Part shown: piece by piece, positions 1,942 through 52,553 of the stretch
Layout of the letters: each line of letters starts with the position of its first letter
Position numbering within the stretch: position 1 is the stretch's first letter
From: a plasmid
Assembly (NCBI RefSeq): GCF_054482595.1
Contig: NZ_JBTHVH010000001.1
Strand: one strand, 5' to 3'
DNA length: 64,000 nucleotides
Made by a program: the position numbers and the translations under genes
The notes under the pieces: model-generated
The model's database searches: none
The model's input: only the letters and a program-made list of their open reading frames with translations
What the model was told of the DNA's origin: nothing

Positions 1942-2124
1942 TATTTTTAAGTCGCGAATGCTATCTTTTTGCATCATATTGACCTTTTAATCGTTCAGGC
2001 TTATAGTTTCGCCGTCGTAGCAAATTCTGCGACCGGGTTTAGCAGCCTGAATGATTGTGCGGACAGCCGCAGATATCCGATATTGCGGTATTTTTGTGTC
2101 CGTAAAACTGCGTTACGCCCAAAT

Positions 2125-2205
2125 TATGGTGGGGCGTGATGGGGAGGCTTCGGCCTGCTGGTTTCACAATCGCCAGTCTGCTAACCCCGTCACGTCCTGC
2201 CACCT
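2125..2205 (+). ncRNA. c4: c4-like antisense RNA of immI module A (approximate boundaries)
   Basis: Lies between target-like site a1 (GATTGTG, 2053-2059) and a2 (GATTGTGA, 2237-2244, overlapping the icd Shine-Dalgarno); contains the complementary element TCACAATC (2164-2171). Confidence 0.45.
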
Positions 2206-2254
2206 GTTTAGCAGCGGGTAGCAGGTTGTTAAACCTGATTGTGAGGCCGTAACT

Positions 2255-20925: not shown

Positions 20926-23186
20926 AAGAGCTGTGCTATGGATCTGTTTGCAGTGGAATTGAAGCCGCGAGTATTGCCTGGGAACCGTTGGGTATGCGTC
21001 CGGCGTGGTTTGCTGAAATCGAGCCTTTTCCATCTGCCGTTCTTGCGCACCGCTGGCCCCATGTCGCCAACCTTGGCGACATGACAAAACTTGCCAAAAA
21101 AGTCCTGGCTGAGGAAATCGAATCCCCTGATGTGCTCGTCGGGGGTACGCCTTGTCAGGCATTCAGTATCGCGGGCTTACGTGGTGGGCTTGATGATGAA
21201 CGCGGCGCGCTAACTTTGAAGTATGTGGAGCTTGCAAATGCAATTGACGACAAACGGTCTGAGTCCTTCCTCAAACCGACAGTTATCGTCTGGGAAAATG
21301 TCCCAGGAGTCCTGTCATCGGCAGATAACGCCTTCGGATGTTTCCTTGCCGGATTGGCTGGAGAAGATGCGCCATTCGAACCAGGTGATCGACCTGAATC
21401 AGGAAAAAGTAACTCGTTCTGGCGGTGGGATGTCAAAACCGGTTGCCATGCTCCAAAGTGGCCGCAGTGTGGTTGTATTTATGGACCGCAGCGAAAGGTG
21501 GCCTGGAGAATCCTTGATGCCCAATACTTCGGAGTGGCACAACGACGCCGACGCGTGTTTGTTGTCGCAAGTGCTCGAACAGACCTCGATCCCGCAACGG
21601 TACTTTTTGAGTTCGAAGGCGTGCGCCGGAATATTGCGCCGAGCCGAAAAAAGAAGGAAATCGCTTCCGCCATTATTGCAAATGGCGCTGCAATCAGTGG
21701 CGAAAGCCTAAATCCATGCCTACACGCTGACATGCCACCCGGTATGAAATCGACGAAAGCCGTAAACGCTTTCAGGATGGCAGCATTTGGGGAATATATT
21801 GACGATGAAACCGCATCGACAGTAAAGGCAAGAGATTTTAAAGATGCCACTGACCTTGCCGTTTTTAGCAGCACAGGAGCAGGTTTTTGGTCAGAAGGGC
21901 ATGGTACATTGCGGGCACGTGAGCAAGAAAGCCATGAGCATCTTGTTACATTGGCTTTTCCTGAGCGTATGAGCGGTACACAACATGCTGCAACTAAGAA
22001 TACTTCACCATCTCTAATGGCTAAAAATCCAACAGCTGTTTGCTATGAAGTAAGAAACGCAGAAGTAGCTGTCCGCCGTCTTACCCCTGTCGAATGTGAA
22101 AGGCTGCAAGGTTTTCCTGATGGGCATACGTTGATCCCGACGGAAAAGCGTAAAAAAGTTAATTCAGATGAACTGGCATATCTTCGCAATCACTATCCAG
22201 ATTTAAGCGAAGAAGAGGCCGCGATGCTTGCAGCTGACGGACCGCGTTACAAAGCGATCGGCAATAGTATGGCAATACCAGTAATGCGCTGGATTGGCGA
22301 TCGGATTACTAAGGCCGTATGTCGGCAGAAAGAAGGAAGTGAAACAAAAGAGCGAAAAGTTAAACCAGCGGCAGAATTCGAACGGTCCATATTCAAATGG
22401 GCTGGTGGAAAATTTGGTGTTCTGGAACAAATCTTTCGCTATTTGCCAGAAGGGAAGCGCCTGATTGAACCTTTCGTTGGTGGCGGAGCTGTCTTCATGA
22501 ATGCCGGATACCAGGAAAATCTGCTAAATGATGTGAATGCTGACCTGATTAACTTTTACAAGACTCTGCAACGCGAGGCGAATTCACTTATCACTCTGGC
22601 ACATCGTTTCTTCCAGGACTACAACACACAGGAAGGATACCTGGCAGTACGGAATGCGTTTAACAAACAAGTCTATGATGATTTACATCGCGCAGCGGCG
22701 TTTTTGTTCCTGAACCGACATTGTTTTAACGGATTGACGCGTTACAACCAGGCCGGTGAGTTCAATGTCGGTTATGGGAAGTATAAAACTCCGTATTTCC
22801 CATTACAGGAGATGGAAGCCTTCCTCGGTGCGGAAGGGCGGTCTGAGTTTGTATGCGGTGATTTTGCAGCGGTGATTGAAGCTGCCGGAGAAGGAGATGT
22901 TATCTTTTGCGATCCGCCGTATGAACCGCTTCCAAATACAGAGGGATTCACGAACTATTCCGGTCATGACTTTAAGTTTGAAGAGCAAAAACGCCTGGTG
23001 TCTCTGTTGACGGATGCTCATCGTCGAGGTGCAAAGGTTCTCATTACTAACAGTGGCGCGCCAAACATCAGAGAGCTTTATCATGACAGTGGCTTCAGAG
23101 TGGAACCTCTTTTTGCCAGACGTTCTGTGTCTTGTAAGGGGGACACTCGAGGTGTAGCTCATGACGTTTTGGGCATATTGCTCTAA
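20922..23186 (+). CDS. dmt: fused DNA methyltransferase: N-terminal C5-cytosine MTase-like, C-terminal Dam-like N6-adenine MTase
   Basis: 754 aa; [11 protein letters not shown] and ENVPG motifs, then KWAGGK and DPPY motifs. Confidence 0.8.
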
Positions 23187-23204
23187 TAAATTTATTAGTG
23201 TAAT
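23177..23204. promoter_or_regulatory. overlapping pair of C1 operator-like sites in opposite orientation
   Basis: ATTGCTCTAATAAATTT overlapping AAATTTATTAGTGTAAT. Confidence 0.6.
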
Positions 23205-23366
23205 ATCGCCCCAATGAATCGTGATTTATAGAGCGATTTAGCTGTTAGCCGCGACAGGCGCGGCGGTAAGCATGGCTGGGCCTAGTCCTCCCAGACAAAC
23301 CACCGAGTTGCCAGGTTGACCATGCGCCTAAGTGGCAACGCCGAAGTGCGTTACGAGCTTCCAGTT

Positions 23367-23392
23367 TGCCCATCTTCGGGTGGGCGTTTTTT
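23367..23392 (+). terminator. rho-independent terminator
   Basis: GCCCATC-TTCG-GGTGGGC followed by GTTTTTT. Confidence 0.6.
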
Positions 23393-23858
23393 CAGGGTTT
23401 TCGTCATGGTTAGCGACTTTGCGGCGGTTTAGAAACTGACCATTAAAGTAAATGCAAACGATGATCTGATGATGGTAGCGGCCTAAGAAACCAGATGCCA
23501 CGGGGTATGAGTCGTCCCCCGTCAAAAAAATCGACCGCAGAGTGTCCCCGTCTGTGTATTAGGGAACGGGGAGGCACAACAGGTAAGGGCGCTGGTGTGA
23601 TTAACCAGATGAACGAGAAGGGGCCATCTGTTGGTCAGCGTCCTTTCCTGTTGCGTTTTCTTTTCAGCGTAACAGCGGTGCTTAACAGCACTTTGGGTAC
23701 AGTTCCACGAATTTACGGGTATATCCCGTCATGCTGAAGGCGCTAATCACGCTGGAAGCCAGGGTTGTGCATCCCCTGTTACCGAATTGCAGCCAGGGCG
23801 CGGTGCGCCGAAAAGCATACGGAGGTGGAAGCCCTCGCCGGAGACGTACCCGGCAAGT

Positions 23859-23934
23859 GATGGTGTAGCTCAGCGGTTAGAGCGGTTGACTGTTAATCAA
23901 CGGGTCGATGGTTCAAATCCATCCACCATCGCCA
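23859..23934 (+). tRNA. tRNA-Asn (anticodon GTT)
   Basis: Manual cloverleaf: acceptor GATGGTG/CACCATC, D arm GCTC-AGCGGTTA-GAGC, anticodon loop CTGTTAA, T arm GATGG-TTCAAAT-CCATC, CCA encoded. Confidence 0.85.
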
Positions 23935-23936
23935 AT

Positions 23937-24012
23937 GCCGGTTTAGCTCAGTTGGTAGAGCGCCTGCCTTGTAAGCAGGATGTCAGCGGTTCGAGTCCGT
24001 TAATCGGCACCA
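23937..24012 (+). tRNA. tRNA-Thr (anticodon TGT)
   Basis: Acceptor GCCGGTT/AATCGGC (one G-U), anticodon loop CTTGTAA, T loop TTCGAGT, CCA encoded. Confidence 0.8.
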
Positions 24013-24014
24013 GC

Positions 24015-24100
24015 ACAACAGGTAAGGGTATTTTGCGACGTCGGAGATCGCCGAGCTTGGCAGAGGGTTCGAATCCCTACGAAGTACCCTTACCGTTGTG
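24015..24100 (+). other. structured tRNA-like element: about 16-bp stem enclosing a T-loop-like GGTTCGAATCC core; not a canonical tRNA
   Basis: CACAACAGGTAAGGGTA pairs with TACCCTTACCGTTGTG; starts immediately after tRNA-Thr. Confidence 0.4.
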
Positions 24101-24744
24101 ATGAAGTGCAGCTCTTTGAAGCAACCAGAAGATAAGCATCTGGCTTCACAACATAAACCGCAGGAACGACCAATAAACGGTAGTCCGTATGGAGAACACC
24201 CCGTTGAGGAAGAGGCCTGGCCGGAACCGTAACCGGCACTACAACGTTGAGAACACTGGCGTAACGGGGTCATATCCCAATCTACGAATAAATGTTGCGT
24301 TGCAGCGTGACAACCAGTGTTCTCAACATTGTGGTGAATGCACAGGCTGATGTGCCGCAACTACAGTAGTGCGCGCTTTGCGGGGCTTGCTACAACCCTG
24401 TGTCGGAGTTCAGCACCGACCATCACAGTTTGATTCTCTGGCATGAGCATAACGCTGAAATAAGTCCAGCCTGGTGCGGCCCGATCACCCGCCGTTAGCT
24501 CCACGAAACGGAGCACGTAACAGGTAAGAGCATTCTCCTGTAACGGGTTCATATCCCAATCTACAGGTCCACCAAGAATGCTCTTTCCGTTGCGGTGAAT
24601 GCGGCTAAGCACACGCGGGGAAATGGTTATATCAGTCCATTCATTTCTCCTTGTTTCCCCGTCCACGGTGGATAACCAGCCAAAGGACACCGGGAGGCAC
24701 CCGGCACCGCAGCTTTTTTATTCGTTAAATAATGGAGTGAGAGG

Positions 24745-24981
24745 ATGCAGAACAATCCGAACAAATGTCGAACGCTATGGGTGCGGTTATATATTTATGC
24801 CGTCCTCTGTTTGATTGTGTCACTGGTTCTGTATGTTTGGCTTTTGCCAAATATGATCTCATCTAACAGCACAATACTTGTATTGTTGGGAGTCCTTCTC
24901 GCGCTCATTTACCCGGCTTTCGCAGTAGTCTTTTTTCGTGAAAAAACCAGGAAATTAATTAATGAAAAAAACGTTGATTAG
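24745..24981 (+). CDS. small membrane protein (two predicted TM helices)
   Basis: 78-aa ORF overlapping the start of the SPFH lipoprotein gene. Confidence 0.4.
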   Translation: MQNNPNKCRTLWVRLYIYAVLCLIVSLVLYVWLLPNMISSNSTILVLLGVLLALIYPAFAVVFFREKTRKLINEKNVD

Positions 24982-25789
24982 TGCAGCGATTATTTTGGGT
25001 TCTTTATGTCTGACCGGATGCGATCGGGTAGAGCCAGGTAACGTAGGGATCAAAGTAAATAAGCTGGGGGATGATAAAGGTATCGGTGAAGTAGTTGGCG
25101 TTGGTCGCTACTGGACAGGCTTGAATACTGAAGTTTATATCTTCCCGACCTTTAAGCAAATGAAGACATACGATGAGCCGTTCAGCTTCCAGATGAGCGA
25201 CGGAACAACCATTGGTTACCACATCGGCGTAGCCTACAAGGTTGATCCAGCAAAAGTCACAACGGTATTTCAGACCTATCGCAAAGGTGTAGATGATATT
25301 ACTGATACCGATCTACGCCAGAAGGTTGCAGATGCTCTGAACCGGTTAGCCAGCAAAATGACCACCGACAAATTTATCGACGGTGGCAAATCTGAATTGC
25401 TTGATGCAGCCCTTAAAGACATTCAGGAAGAAATGACGCCAATCGGCATTCAGGTGATGAGCCTCTCTTATGTAGGTAAGCCAGAATACCCGCCAACAGT
25501 TATTGACAGTATTAACGCCAAAGTCACGGCAAACCAAAAAACCCTGCAACGCGAGCAAGAGGTCAAACAACGTGAAGCAGAGGCCAACATGCTGCGCGCG
25601 GAAGCTGCCGGACAGGCTGATGCTATTCGCACAAAAGCCCAGGCCGAAGCTGATGCCATTCGTTTACGTGGTGAAGCTCTGCGCCAGAACCCCGGTGTTA
25701 TGGAGTTGGAAGCGATCAACAAATGGAACGGTACATTACCGCAGTATATGACCAGTAATACCGCTGTTCCGTTTGTTCCGGTGAAATAA
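24962..25789 (+). CDS. SPFH/band-7-like lipoprotein
   Basis: Lipobox LTGC; Ala/Glu/Gln-rich coiled coil near C-terminus. Confidence 0.55.
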   Translation: MKKTLISAAIILGSLCLTGCDRVEPGNVGIKVNKLGDDKGIGEVVGVGRYWTGLNTEVYIFPTFKQMKTYDEPFSFQMSDGTTIGYHIGVAYKVDPAKVTTVFQTYRKGVDDITDTDLRQKVADALNRLASKMTTDKFIDGGKSELLDAALKDIQEEMTPIGIQVMSLSYVGKPEYPPTVIDSINAKVTANQKTLQREQEVKQREAEANMLRAEAAGQADAIRTKAQAEADAIRLRGEALRQNPGVMELEAINKWNGTLPQYMTSNTAVPFVPVK

Positions 25790-25816
25790 AAGCGTAAGCA
25801 AAATTGGCAGTAATCC

Positions 25817-25892
25817 GGCCCTTTAGCTCAGTGGTTAGAGCTGGCGACTCATAATCGCACGGTCACCGGTTCAAGTCCGGTAGGGGCCACCA
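25817..25892 (+). tRNA. tRNA-Ile2 (anticodon CAT, lysidine type; Met not excluded)
   Basis: Sequence closely resembles E. coli ileX as recalled; acceptor GGCCCTT/AGGGGCC, anticodon loop CTCATAA, T loop TTCAAGT. Confidence 0.75.
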
Positions 25893-26172
25893 TATTTGGT
25901 TGTAACACGGCGTCTGGCACATGCGTCGTTAGCGGTCTGGTGACGTTAAAAGGGGGGAACCTTGCCCCTAGCTCAGGCAACGAACCAGGTAGCCGGAATG
26001 TGCAAGCCACCGTTTGTTGTTTCTCGGGTAAAGGGATTCACCATCCTGGCGATTCGGTGTGACAGCCGGGAAAAGTCCGGCGCATTAATCCTGATTTTCT
26101 GGTGATGACTCATATCGTTAGGAGTGATTTGAGTATGCCGATTATATCTGACATTCAGCACGCCTGGGTGGA

Positions 26173-27543
26173 GTGCTAATGTCTGCATCCCCTCTTGAAT
26201 CCATGCCAAATTCCCTTAGTGCAGAACAAGCTGTACTTGGTGGCTTAATGCTTGATAACTGCCGCTGGGATGAAGTTGCAGATCGTATAGTTGCTGATGA
26301 TTTTTATACCAGTGCTCATCGTGAAATTTTCAGTGAGATGGAGAGGTTATTAAGTCATGGCAAACCGATTGATTTGATAACACTTGCTGAAGCACTTGAA
26401 CAGAACGGTAAATTAGAACGCGCCGGTGGTTTTGCGTACCTTGCGGAGATGTCAAAGAACACGCCCAGCGCGGCAAATATTTGTGCTTATGCGGATATCG
26501 TTCGTGAACGCGCGGTTGTTCGTGAAATGATTTCCGTCGCAAATGAAATAGCCGAAGCTGGATATGCGCAGGATGGCAGGGGCAGCAATGAATTGCTGGA
26601 TATGGCCGAGCGTCGCGTTTTTGAAATAGCTGAAAAACGACAAAAGAGCGGTAGTGGTCCAAAAGATATCGCCAGCATTCTCGATGCGACGGTATCTCGC
26701 ATAGAAGAGTTGTTTCAGCGACCACATGATGGTGTAACGGGGCTTGATACGGGATTTACCGATCTCAATAAGAAGACGGCAGGGCTTCAGCCGTCCGATC
26801 TCATCATTGTCGCCGCCCGCCCATCTATGGGGAAGACCACGTTTGCGATGAATCTCGTCGAAAATGCCGCAGTTCGTAACGATAAGCCCGTATTGGTTTT
26901 TAGCCTTGAGATGCCGAGCCACCAGCTGATGATGCGCTCACTGGCTTCTCTTGCACGCGTTGATCAGACTCGTATTCGGACAGGGCAACTTAACGACGAG
27001 GATTGGGCGCGGGTTTCTGGCGCAATGGGTATTCTGTTGGACAAGCAGAATATTTTTATTGATGACTCAAGCGCCCTGACGCCGACAGAGCTACGTTCCC
27101 GCGCTCGTCGTGTTTATAAAGAAAATGGTGGTTTGAGCATGATTATGATCGACTACCTGCAACTTATGCGCGTCCCCGAGCTGCAAGATAACCGAACGCT
27201 GGAAATTGCCGAGATTTCTCGCTCACTGAAGGCGTTGGCGAAGGAATTACAAGTACCGGTGGTGGCATTGTCACAACTTAATCGATCGCTTGAACAGCGT
27301 GCGGACAAACGACCGGTAAATTCAGATTTACGTGAATCAGGAGCAATTGAGCAGGACGCAGACCTGATTATGTTTCTGTATCGCGACGAAGTTTATCACC
27401 CGGATAGCGAAATGAAGGGCATTGCCGAGGTAATTATCGGAAAGCAACGAAATGGCCCAATTGGCACGGTGAGATTGGCTTTTAACGGCCAATACTCACG
27501 GTTTGATAACTATGCCGGTGCTGACTGGCAAGAGGATTATTAA
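26173..27543 (+). CDS. ban: DnaB-like replicative helicase
   Basis: 456 aa; Walker A GKTTFA; DnaB-family C-terminal block. Confidence 0.85.
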   Translation: MLMSASPLESMPNSLSAEQAVLGGLMLDNCRWDEVADRIVADDFYTSAHREIFSEMERLLSHGKPIDLITLAEALEQNGKLERAGGFAYLAEMSKNTPSAANICAYADIVRERAVVREMISVANEIAEAGYAQDGRGSNELLDMAERRVFEIAEKRQKSGSGPKDIASILDATVSRIEELFQRPHDGVTGLDTGFTDLNKKTAGLQPSDLIIVAARPSMGKTTFAMNLVENAAVRNDKPVLVFSLEMPSHQLMMRSLASLARVDQTRIRTGQLNDEDWARVSGAMGILLDKQNIFIDDSSALTPTELRSRARRVYKENGGLSMIMIDYLQLMRVPELQDNRTLEIAEISRSLKALAKELQVPVVALSQLNRSLEQRADKRPVNSDLRESGAIEQDADLIMFLYRDEVYHPDSEMKGIAEVIIGKQRNGPIGTVRLAFNGQYSRFDNYAGADWQEDY

Positions 27544-44635: not shown

Positions 44636-45010
44636 ATGATGACACTAAAACATTTTCTTGACCGCCCATTATGGGCGGCAGCCGCAGGCTATGACTTTAA
44701 TTATATGGATTGCATGTCTTATACCGCCAATGCATACGACTATTCCTTCAGTCTGCTGCTTAATTCTTTAAGAATATTGCCGCAAACAGAAGTTGGAGAG
44801 CTTCATTTATGGCTATTGGGCTTTATCGCGGCTGTCGTTGGTATTGCTGTATGGCCTTTTATTTTCTGGCTGGTGGCTGTTGTAGTGTGGTTTAAGTGCA
44901 AGACATACCGGAAAAAGTATTTCTTAGGTGATGGAATGACTGATATTGCCAAAATGAACATTGAAGAATGGACTAAGGAATGTGAAAAGAAATGGCGCAA
45001 AAAGAAATGA
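44636..45010 (+). CDS. membrane protein (two TM helices)
   Basis: Hydrophobic segments. Confidence 0.4.
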   Translation: MMTLKHFLDRPLWAAAAGYDFNYMDCMSYTANAYDYSFSLLLNSLRILPQTEVGELHLWLLGFIAAVVGIAVWPFIFWLVAVVVWFKCKTYRKKYFLGDGMTDIAKMNIEEWTKECEKKWRKKK

Positions 45011-52234: not shown

Positions 52235-52424
52235 TGTTTTTTAACTACCGATGTTACATTGAACCTGACCTCTTGCGCCTTGAGGCATTTTCGGTTTATG
52301 CTTATCAGGCACCTCAGTAAAACGGGTGCCGGGATTGGCCTCCCGCTTAAGTCTAAGGCGATACAGACGCCGCTCGCGTCTTTTTTTTGTATCGGCGTAC
52401 ACGCACACCTCTACAATGGTGGGC

Positions 52425-52497
52425 TGTATGGGGCTACCTTCGGGTAGGCTGGTTACCTTGGACGCCAGTAAGGCCAACTCCGTACAGTCCACCGCCA
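52425..52497 (+). ncRNA. c4-like antisense RNA of module B (approximate)
   Basis: Alignable with module A c4 region; specificity element ACCTTGGAC (52455-52463) complementary, with one G-U, to GTCTAAGG at 52351-52358 and 52535-52542. Confidence 0.4.
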
Positions 52498-52553
52498 GCA
52501 AGATTGGTCTCTTCTGCGGTGGTTACATACCAACGTCTAAGGAGGCTGCCAAT

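Follow-up and report, generated by a model that had tools for sequence, protein, structure and literature searches.

Three tRNA genes in the ban operon of a P1-like phage-plasmid and their likely part in decoding A/U-ending codons

Phage-borne tRNA genes raise the question of what they are for. Here we address it for a locus with genes for tRNA-Asn, tRNA-Thr and a tRNA with a CAU anticodon, found in a 64-kb window, which is the whole stretch of plasmid DNA that was analysed. Are these genes new, from which promoter would they be expressed, which codons do they serve and is the CAU tRNA an isoleucine or a methionine tRNA?

The tRNA genes and their place in the ban operon

Screening of the whole window with ARAGORN identified exactly three tRNA genes, all on the plus strand (Table 1). 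The tRNA covariance model of Rfam, RF00005, recovered each of them from the same 64 kb with 64.7 to 74.5 bits (gathering score 29 bits) and with E-values from 1.8e-14 to 9e-12, which is far beyond chance. A preliminary description had proposed a phage-borne set consisting of tRNA-Asn(GUU), tRNA-Thr(UGU) and, some 1.8 kb further on, an Ile2-type tRNA(CAU), all with a cloverleaf fold and an encoded CCA, and this is borne out. The Asn and Thr genes are separated by a spacer of 2 nt (AT) and the CAU gene starts 1804 nt past the end of the Thr gene. The CCA can be read directly in all three sequences, where it follows G73 in tRNA-Asn (G73-CCA at 23931-23934) and A73 in both tRNA-Thr (24009-24012) and the CAU tRNA (25889-25892). 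In addition, tRNA-Thr has the pairs G1-C72 and C2-G71. Compared with their E. coli counterparts asnT and thrU, tRNA-Asn differs at 28 and tRNA-Thr at 14 of the 76 positions, each with an identical anticodon loop. A weak match to Rfam family YrlA (Y-RNA-like) at 23879-23996 was rejected because it merely overlaps the Asn and Thr tRNAs, and weak matches to microRNA and plastid families were considered noise.

The window comes from a P1-like phage-plasmid, whose tRNA genes match trnA, trnT and trnI of reference P1 (NC_005856, trnA-trnI at 69348-71008) at 76 out of 76 positions each. The same genes are found in RCS47, P7, SJ46 and D6, bar the Thr gene of P7, with one change, and the CAU gene of D6, with two. 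Judged by this identity the three are genes already known, long annotated in P1 with the Ile2 assignment included, since the P1 record labels trnI as "tRNA-ile2 (CAT), 89% identical to ileX". In some P1 relatives a gene for tRNA-Tyr(GUA) adjoins that for tRNA-Asn. Relatives, as well as other phage contigs that bear the hairpins described below, have extra tRNAs with the anticodons Ser-UGA (codon UCA), Arg-UCU (AGA) and Gly-UCC (GGA).

Table 1. Features of the ban operon region, in window coordinates.
Feature	Coordinates	Strand	Evidence
C1 repressor operator Oban (divalent), overlaps P1ban/P2ban promoters	23177..23204	+	Alignment to P1
'dicF-like' stretch (P1 label), ends in terminator-like hairpin and T-run 23364-23396	23301..23402	+	P1 annotation transfer
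Hairpin h0, leader, upstream of tRNA-Asn	23574..23660	+	Inverted and direct repeats; RNAfold -43.6 kcal/mol, z = -5.5
tRNA-Asn(GUU) = P1 trnA	23859..23934	+	ARAGORN; Rfam 74.5 bits; 100% identity to P1 trnA
tRNA-Thr(UGU) = P1 trnT	23937..24012	+	ARAGORN; Rfam 72.9 bits; 100% identity to P1 trnT
Three-hairpin array	24013..24600	+	RNAfold; 98.4% identical to P1 plp/upl region
Hairpin h1, directly after tRNA-Thr CCA	24013-24100	+	RNAfold z = -5.6
Hairpin h2	24237-24340	+	RNAfold z = -6.5
Hairpin h3	24515-24600	+	RNAfold z = -5.8
Structured segment, sub-threshold STnc100 (Rfam sRNA)	24591..24711	+	35.9 bits vs gathering score 47, E = 1.9e-5
Hydrophobic 78-aa ORF, P1-variant-specific cargo	24745..24981	+	ORF list; 'membrane protein' in Ro157c2YLVW
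SPFH/Band-7 lipoprotein gene, 275 aa	24962..25789	+	Pfam Band_7 E = 9.7e-31; SPFH label in 99.9%-identical records
tRNA-Ile2 type (CAU) = P1 trnI	25817..25892	+	ARAGORN (CAT); Rfam 64.7 bits; 100% identity to P1 trnI
ban, DnaB-like replicative helicase, operon namesake	26179..27543	+	100% protein identity to MH422554 helicase; P1 annotation

The window is colinear with P1 and MH422554, and the tRNA genes lie downstream of dmt and Oban and upstream of ban. The sequence ATTGCTCTAATAAATTT aligns with the annotated P1 operator at 68667-68694, in a region that is ~99% identical to NC_005856. On the plus strand, no annotated promoter other than P1ban/P2ban with Oban precedes the tRNAs; all parts from promoter to ban lie on a single strand, and in the P7 record control of the tRNA genes is ascribed to Op(ban). 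By homology with P1, the tRNA genes are assigned to the early, C1-repressed ban operon and not to a late promoter. A scan for sigma-70-like promoters between 22500 and 26500 called none and missed the known Pban as well, which makes it uninformative for this region. According to a P1vir RNA-seq preprint, trnA and trnI are among the expressed P1 genes. The Rfam DicF model gave no match in the 'dicF-like' stretch, even at E<=5. Between the Thr and CAU genes, the product of the 78-aa ORF is probably a membrane protein; the SPFH/Band-7 lipoprotein gene that follows sits where reference P1 has tciA-tciB-tciC, and this cargo variant is common to many P1-like plasmids and phages.

Codon usage and the role of the tRNAs

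The genes are trnA, trnT and trnI of a P1-type phage-plasmid, spread over the leader and the body of its ban operon, and we consider it likely that they boost the decoding of A/U-ending codons. When lytic growth starts, C1 would leave Oban and a single long transcript would be made from Pban. Host enzymes would then excise the tRNAs, with RNase P generating the 5' ends, endo- and exonucleases the 3' ends, and the CCA pre-encoded. Host AsnRS would charge tRNA-Asn(GUU) and host ThrRS tRNA-Thr(UGU); the CAU tRNA would require that host TilS first turns C34 to lysidine, after which IleRS could charge it and AUA could be read. The trio would thereby add decoders for AUA, ACA and AAU, which are overused across all genes of the AT-richer element, and may in this way increase its fitness.

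Codon usage was determined for 11,245 window codons and compared with 20,279 E. coli codons. Gene sets were defined by annotated E. coli CDS coordinates and by P1 genes mapped by tblastn; naive longest-ORF calls were discarded except for Tyr, since around the E. coli ribosomal-protein genes they took antisense ORFs (yielding for instance AGG at 4.1 per 1000). The window covers about two thirds of the element and the tail-fibre, lysis and dar genes fall outside the count. ATA occurs at 8.8 per 1000 codons in the window versus 2.7 in E. coli (OR 3.3, p = 4e-13), ACA at 13.6 versus 6.6 (OR 2.1, p = 8e-10) and AAT at 22.7 versus 15.3 (OR 1.5, p = 4e-6). Total Asn codons amount to 45.5 per 1000 in the window versus 38.6 in E. 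coli (p = 0.003). The enrichment of AUA and ACA fits codon compensation well. The codons of the extra Ser, Arg and Gly tRNAs of the relatives are also enriched in the window, which we count in favour of compensation. Other observations argue against it. AAC, the cognate codon of GUU, shows no enrichment (0.98x), hence tRNA-Asn is weakly explained by codon demand, and E. coli itself encodes Asn tRNAs in several genes. Furthermore AGG (6.5x), AGA (4.2x) and CGA (2.2x) are all enriched above ACA, in a window that has no Arg tRNA.

The preliminary description had also suggested that the set supports late-gene codon usage, to be seen in a comparison with the host for AAC/AAU, ACA and AUA. What stands is the excess over E. 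coli of AUA, ACA and AAU; AAC does not take part in it, and the connection with late genes is not supported. ATA (OR 1.08, p = 0.82) and ACA (OR 0.85, p = 0.37) show no difference in use between late and early genes. The capsid, sheath and tube genes, which encode the most abundant late proteins, nearly avoid AUA with a single ATA in 1368 codons, versus 19 in 799 codons in the baseplate genes gp5, gp24, gp7 and gp26. Both the lack of a late/early difference and the AUA-poor top late genes are counted against the proposed explanation and make the size of any translational benefit hard to judge. The idea that the tRNAs serve late genes thus fails in detail: the excess of these codons extends over the whole genome, their tRNAs have a promoter that is by homology early and repressor-controlled, and codon demand does not account for tRNA-Asn.

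The Asn gene also favours another role, namely that the phage tRNAs replace host tRNAs lost to anticodon nucleases or tRNA-targeting toxins instead of matching codons, which we regard as improbable. Besides tRNA-Asn, which compensation explains poorly, it could accommodate the adjoining tRNA-Tyr of some relatives, given that Tyr codons reach ~1.1x in rough, naive longest-ORF gene calls. tRNA-Asn and tRNA-Tyr both belong to the queuosine tRNAs (Tyr, His, Asn and Asp), which are cleaved by colicin E5-type enzymes. That phage tRNAs counter host tRNA depletion is a general published hypothesis, for which altered anticodon loops form the escape signature (PMC10264068). The anticodon loops found here, CUGUUAA, CUUGUAA and CUCAUAA, are those of asnT, thrU and ileX, so the escape signature is absent and a nuclease that attacks the anticodon loop would cut the phage tRNAs too. 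Codon compensation, on the other hand, accounts well for the enrichment of AUA and ACA.

Hairpins around the tRNA genes

The hairpin upstream of tRNA-Asn belongs to a family, CACAAC-A-GGTAAG...CCGTTG, that recurs downstream of tRNA-Thr. Family members have a constant stem of ~20 bp, CACAAC-A-GGTAAGAGCATT ... AGTGCUCUUUCC-G-GUUGUG, in which a U-U mismatch is conserved; the apex, 40-55 nt long, is hypervariable. Compensatory stem changes are found between the paralogues as well as among P1, P7 and Ro157c2. In the stretch of h1-h3 the P1 annotation places the ORFs plp and upl on the minus strand; neither matches a Pfam family. At least 120 viral contigs contain the hairpin, which without exception shares the strand of nearby tRNA genes and in many cases adjoins them directly; phage lambda has the same hairpin right behind tR' in its late leader. 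The possibility that the arms are flanks of a slot that holds a tRNA was rejected, as they are ~50-100 nt apart in 125 of 146 cases, pair at that distance and have no tRNA between them. The 3' arm UGCUCUUU resembles rrn boxA, but its reading as a boxA site is not supported, since the sequence is not conserved in the paralogues h0, h1 and h2. The P7 homologue of the STnc100-like segment that follows the array scores 43 bits, against the gathering score of 47.

The hairpin family is uncatalogued, and none of the papers searched has its stem sequence. Tentatively, the hairpins might be functional RNA elements, either signals for processing or stability or landing pads for the exchange of tRNAs and small cargo between temperate phages; if true, the P1 'genes' plp and upl are not genes. 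That a tRNA-flanking hairpin family is common to the ban leader of P1 and to lambdoid late leaders is a lead worth following.

The hairpins bring up a further role for the tRNAs, that of punctuation: together with the long hairpins they would mainly be cleavage signals for RNase P, RNase E or RNase III in the Pban transcript, with decoding secondary. The tRNAs do lie within one operon that runs from promoter to ban, a ~20-bp hairpin stands directly 3' of tRNA-Thr with more along the leader, and this hairpin also adjoins the tRNA genes of other phages, each time on their strand. We nevertheless judge it very unlikely that punctuation is their main function, and equally so that it serves to release the DicF-like RNA, the cargo mRNA and the ban mRNA as separately stable pieces. 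In all three genes the identity sets are complete, CCA is encoded and stem changes are compensated, all of which suggests use as tRNAs, and the anticodons in the family follow the enriched codons, where punctuation alone would need no particular anticodons.

The CAU tRNA and comparison with known systems

The CAU tRNA is of the Ile2 type. With E. coli K-12 ileX it has 68 of 76 positions in common (89.5%, 8 differences), in line with the close resemblance noted beforehand; metT/metU (elongator) and metZ (initiator) are more distant, with 22 and 32 differences. Its acceptor stem GGCCCUU/AGGGGCC contains C4-G69 and C5-G68, the pairs needed by E. coli TilS (PMC1635315, PMC11947777), where metT has U-A and A-U. 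Initiators are marked by a C1xA72 mismatch, A11-U24 and three G-C pairs 29-31/39-41 (GGG/CCC) (PMC1635315); the CAU tRNA has G1-C72, C11-G24 and CGA at 29-31. RefSeq labels identical copies tRNA-Ile, as do the P1 and P7 records. Together, the Ile2-like sequence, the TilS pairs, the lack of initiator marks and the RefSeq label speak against an elongator or initiator Met, an identity that would have refuted the preliminary description. tRNAscan-SE 2.0 has isotype-specific models that tell Ile2, Met and fMet apart (PMC8450103).

No TilS homologue is encoded in the window. The best tblastn hit for a phage TilS, the ORF at 40104-40982 (E = 0.12), was rejected since it has a PAPS_reduct domain and belongs to another PP-loop family. 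Reliance of this Ile2-type tRNA on host TilS, as had been anticipated, is therefore a sound inference, and lysidinylation is predicted. Its efficiency may be reduced: anticodon-stem changes are said to impair E. coli TilS (PMC11947777), and the G27-A43 mismatch of the CAU tRNA is for that reason counted against the proposed explanation.

A tRNA-Met identity of the third gene, elongator or initiator, is scarcely credible, for although ARAGORN calls it Met from the anticodon, the RCS47, Ro157c2YLVW and 813R1 records carry that label and an unmodified fraction would act as tRNA-Met (PMC1635315), the sequence differences, the TilS pairs and the P1, P7 and RefSeq labels contradict it. The 'tRNA-Met' labels for trnI in several phage records are explained as artefacts of tools that see only the anticodon.

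The closest host counterparts are E. coli ileX and ileY, with which the CAU tRNA shares the anticodon loop, pairs 28-42 to 31-39, C4-G69, C5-G68, U12-A23, C29-G41 and A73. It differs from ileX by U6-G67 instead of C6-G67, by U26 and C44, and by a G-A mismatch at 27-43 where ileX has G-U. In the T-stem G49-C65 is replaced by A-U and U51-A63 by C-G; that both sides of these two pairs are altered shows selection for the fold. Moreover, ileX and ileY are under host promoters whereas the CAU gene is phage-borne and C1-controlled.

The locus follows the P1 ban operon in the order dmt, Pban/Oban, leader, Asn, 2 nt, Thr, hairpins, cargo, Ile2, ban and dbn. It differs in the cargo, a small membrane ORF and an SPFH lipoprotein in place of the tciA-tciB-tciC of P1.

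Lambdoid Stx prophages also are temperate enterobacterial phages that have an Ile2-type CAU tRNA and further rare-codon tRNAs in a leader transcribed on induction. Their tRNA genes, ileZ-argN-argO between Q and stx/S, are in the late pR' leader with Arg partners, whereas those of P1 are in the early ban operon with Asn and Thr. A similarity search matched prophage tRNA-Ile/tRNA-Arg pairs, with ~72% similarity to the P1 Asn-Thr pair, and the hairpin family that flanks the P1 tRNAs is also present in lambdoid late leaders. In T4 and T5, too, host RNases release the clustered tRNAs from polycistronic transcripts, and codon compensation is the usual account. These clusters comprise 8 or >20 tRNAs in lytic phages, in contrast to the three genes described here, which are split by cargo, reside in a plasmid prophage and would be repressed in the lysogen.

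The tRNA genes and the operon that carries them

ARAGORN finds exactly three tRNA genes in the whole 64-kb window, all on the plus strand, and the Rfam tRNA covariance model accepts their folds (64.7-74.5 bits, where the gathering score is 29; E-values 1.8e-14 to 9e-12). A permissive Rfam scan of 22900-26400 gave no tRNA beyond these. Each gene encodes CCA after the discriminator, which is G73 in tRNA-Asn and A73 in the other two, and the Asn and Thr genes are 2 nt apart. The preliminary description had placed three cloverleaf genes with encoded CCA here and was correct in every detail.

These genes are an already annotated, known P1 feature that was correctly rediscovered. In the annotation of reference P1 (NC_005856) trnA is tRNA-Asn, trnT is tRNA-Thr and the third gene, trnI, bears the note 'tRNA-ile2 (CAT) gene; 89 pct identical to ileX gene of Escherichia coli'; all 76 positions of each window gene are as in the P1 gene. 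The sequences are also common to RCS47, P7, SJ46 and D6, except that the Thr gene has one change in P7 and the CAT-anticodon gene two in D6. A preprint of 2025 on P1vir RNA-seq takes trnA and trnI to be expressed genes of P1. The element is a P1-type phage-plasmid, because window 23500-26300 has 99.9% identity to several phage records, 'Punavirus P1' and P1-like, P1-like genome MH422554 is colinear with the window from position 1 to ~48 kb, and beyond ~48 kb the window has the usual P1-type pdcA/pdcB-lpa-pacA-pacB-c1-cre region. Among plasmids, region 23500-26300 matches 1013 records, most of which come from Escherichia, Klebsiella and Salmonella.

All parts, from the end of dmt through ban and dbn, lie on one strand. 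The slot that holds tciABC in reference P1 is taken in the window by an SPFH lipoprotein gene preceded by a 78-aa membrane ORF. Because of the order of these parts, and since the P7 record has the tRNA genes controlled by Op(ban), the tRNA set is predicted to be part of an early repressor-controlled operon and not to be under a late (Lpa-dependent) promoter.

Features in and next to the ban operon in window order
Feature	Position	Strand	Remarks
End of dmt	to 23186		
P1ban/P2ban promoters with divalent C1 operator	23177-23204		~99% identity to P1
'dicF-like' stretch (P1's label)	hairpin 23364-23396		terminator-like hairpin
Leader with long hairpin	hairpin 23574-23660		followed by Asn, then Thr tRNA
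tRNA-Asn(gtt)	23859-23934	+	ARAGORN; Rfam model 74.5 bits
tRNA-Thr(tgt)	23937-24012	+	ARAGORN; Rfam model 72.9 bits
Hairpin region	3' of Thr tRNA		~700 nt
Hairpin	24013-24100		
Hairpin	24237-24340		
Hairpin	24515-24600		
78-aa membrane ORF	between hairpin region and SPFH gene		
SPFH lipoprotein gene	3' of 78-aa ORF, 5' of CAT-anticodon tRNA		Pfam Band_7, E = 1e-30
CAT-anticodon tRNA	25817-25892	+	ARAGORN; Rfam model 64.7 bits
ban, then dbn	3' of CAT-anticodon tRNA		

Elsewhere in the window there are three C4-type antisense RNA genes, at 2001-2207 (+), 52309-52499 (+) and 58868-59074 (-). Two of them have a1/b1 target sites and stand in inverted orientation ~57 kb apart; the third has as its neighbours an isrK-like RNA and, between pacB and c1, an extra icd/roi module, and since these are present the element has several immI-like modules. 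Relative to MH422554, 40104-42230 is an insertion, containing a 292-aa ORF with a PAPS-reductase (PP-loop) domain (40104-40982) and an Ead/Ea22-like ORF (41411-42058).

Codon usage and the tRNA sets of relatives

Codons were counted in 49 P1-type genes mapped by tblastn plus one window ORF (11,245 codons). Two comparison sets were used: 63 annotated genes of E. coli K-12 (20,279 codons) and 30 genes for ribosomal proteins and elongation factors. Among the codons proposed for comparison with the host, ATA (8.8 versus 2.7 per 1000 in E. coli; odds ratio 3.3, p = 4e-13), ACA (13.6 versus 6.6; 2.1, p = 8e-10) and AAT (22.7 versus 15.3; 1.5, p = 4e-6) are enriched and AAC is not (22.9 versus 23.2; 0.98, p = 0.84); total Asn stands at 45.5 versus 38.6 per 1000 (p = 0.003). 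Strong enrichment is seen as well for AGG (6.5x), AGA (4.2x) and CGA (2.2x), whose matching tRNAs are absent from the window. Support of late-gene codon usage, the role first suggested for the set, finds no support in the form stated, late structural and early/lysogenic genes showing no difference (ATA odds ratio 1.08, p = 0.82; ACA 0.85, p = 0.37). Within the late class ATA accounts for 1 of 1368 codons in capsid, sheath and tube genes and 19 of 799 in baseplate genes 5, 24, 7 and 26. Because of these odds ratios and the late/early comparison, codon compensation for AUA and ACA holds across the whole AT-richer element (G+C 47.6% versus 52.0%), is weak for Asn and is not late-specific.

tRNA content differs between relatives. 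In Ro157c2YLVW and pE2865-1 the Asn and Thr alleles are diverged and a tRNA-Tyr(GUA) is inserted between them; P7 and D6 have an added class II tRNA-Ser(UGA) in the hairpin region, and in some viral contigs (L021 7193-7269; L054 4790-4866) a tRNA-Arg(UCU) occupies the Asn slot. The latter has the acceptor stem (GATGGTG/CACCATC), G73 and flanks of P1 tRNA-Asn with different D, anticodon and T arms, and resembles a tRNA gene in which the inner part has been exchanged. Compensation fits as a general theme of these sets, since the codons enriched in the window include UCA and AGA.

The extra class II tRNA of P7 (locus L014, 2959-3046) and D6 (locus L013, 3474-3560) has anticodon UGA and is called Ser by ARAGORN; on the Rfam tRNA-Sec model it reaches 46.6 bits, just below the gathering score of 47, and in the D6 record its amino acid was not called by tRNAscan-SE.

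tRNA-Asn has a GUU anticodon and G73, and tRNA-Thr has G1-C72, C2-G71, G35 and U36, the known identity elements for E. coli AsnRS and ThrRS, respectively. They differ from host asnT at 28 and from thrU at 14 of 76 positions, with the same anticodon loops. A counter-defence or replenishment role for phage tRNAs (PMC10264068) has appeal for Asn and Tyr only, whose tRNAs codon demand explains poorly, but the published escape signature is absent, because the phage anticodon loops equal the host ones. A pure role in processing punctuation would leave the complete identity sets and the particular anticodons unexplained.

A hairpin family beside the tRNA genes

Window 24013-24744 consists of long hairpins whose folding energies are lower than those of shuffled controls by 5.6 to 6.5 standard deviations, and the hairpin in the leader (23574-23660) is related to them. 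The hairpins share the frame CACAAC-A-GGTAAGAGCATT...AGTGCTCTTTCC-G-GTTGTG, then GTGAATGC, and enclose unrelated apices: a constant stem of ~20 bp is capped by a hypervariable apex, 40-55 nt long, that in some cases contains a T-arm-like GGTTCGAATCC. Stem changes are compensated between paralogues and between P1, P7 and Ro157c2, and the G-U pairs are on the transcribed strand. In IMG/VR a pattern built from the frame, so that stem conservation is partly built in, is found in at least 120 contigs (loci L019-L138), with 86 different hairpin sequences in the 123 matches listed. Among these listed matches 30 of the 123 hairpins have a tRNA gene no more than 400 nt away (chance expectation 5.6) and 12 have one no more than 25 nt away (chance expectation 1.5), hairpin and nearby tRNA are on the same strand in 30 of 30 cases, and most tRNAs of the contigs are Arg-UCU, CAU, Thr-UGU, Asn-GUU, Ser-UGA and Gly-UCC. 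In the late leader of phage lambda such a hairpin (NC_001416, ~44789-44861) directly follows tR', the terminator of 6S RNA. The family, which has no Rfam entry and whose stem sequence was not found in the literature searched, might be new and is the only lead of that kind.

P1 plp and upl, minus-strand ORFs of 125 and 109 aa here (23983-24690), are wholly antisense to the hairpin array; they have no Pfam family, upl varies in length between records, and both may be annotation artefacts. A sub-threshold match to STnc100, an sRNA family of Rfam (24591-24711; 35.9 bits, gathering score 47) starts at the GGTGAATGC motif following the hairpins, just upstream of the cargo genes, and its P7 counterpart (L014 3156-3271) scores 43 bits.

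Identity of the CAT-anticodon tRNA

The proposal that the third tRNA is of Ile2 type and close to ileX is supported by its sequence features. In alignments with genes of E. coli K-12 it shows 8 differences from ileX, 22 from elongator metT/metU and 32 from initiator metZ. A73, C4-G69, U12-A23, C29-G41, A37 and A38, positions reported to be IleRS identity elements, are all as in ileX. Identical plasmid copies are labelled tRNA-Ile in RefSeq, and NCBI's pipeline uses tRNAscan-SE 2.0. In that program Ile2, Met and fMet are told apart by isotype-specific models (PMC8450103). Pairs C4-G69 and C5-G68, for which metT has U4-A69 and A5-U68, are the two acceptor-stem pairs on which E. coli TilS relies (PMC1635315; PMC11947777). 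Having G1-C72, C11-G24 and CGA at 29-31, the tRNA is therefore without the initiator marks C1xA72, A11-U24 and GGG/CCC (PMC1635315). A tRNA-Met reading was rejected on the alignment differences and the lack of initiator marks; the label 'tRNA-Met', given by ARAGORN and by some phage records, derives from the anticodon alone. Since two T-stem pairs are altered on both sides relative to ileX (G49-C65 to A-U, U51-A63 to C-G), the fold is under selection.

As tblastn found no TilS homologue in the window (best E = 0.12, an ORF with a PAPS_reduct domain), the tRNA may soundly be expected to depend on host TilS. An unmodified fraction would simply behave as tRNA-Met (PMC1635315). A caveat comes from the anticodon stem, since substitutions there can impair E. 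coli TilS (PMC11947777): its first pair, 27-43 (window 25843 and 25859), is mismatched as G-A in all the P1-family copies that were examined. Compared with E. coli ileX, the P1 tRNA shares the CUCAUAA anticodon loop and pairs 28-42 to 31-39, but has G27-A43 where ileX has G27-U43.
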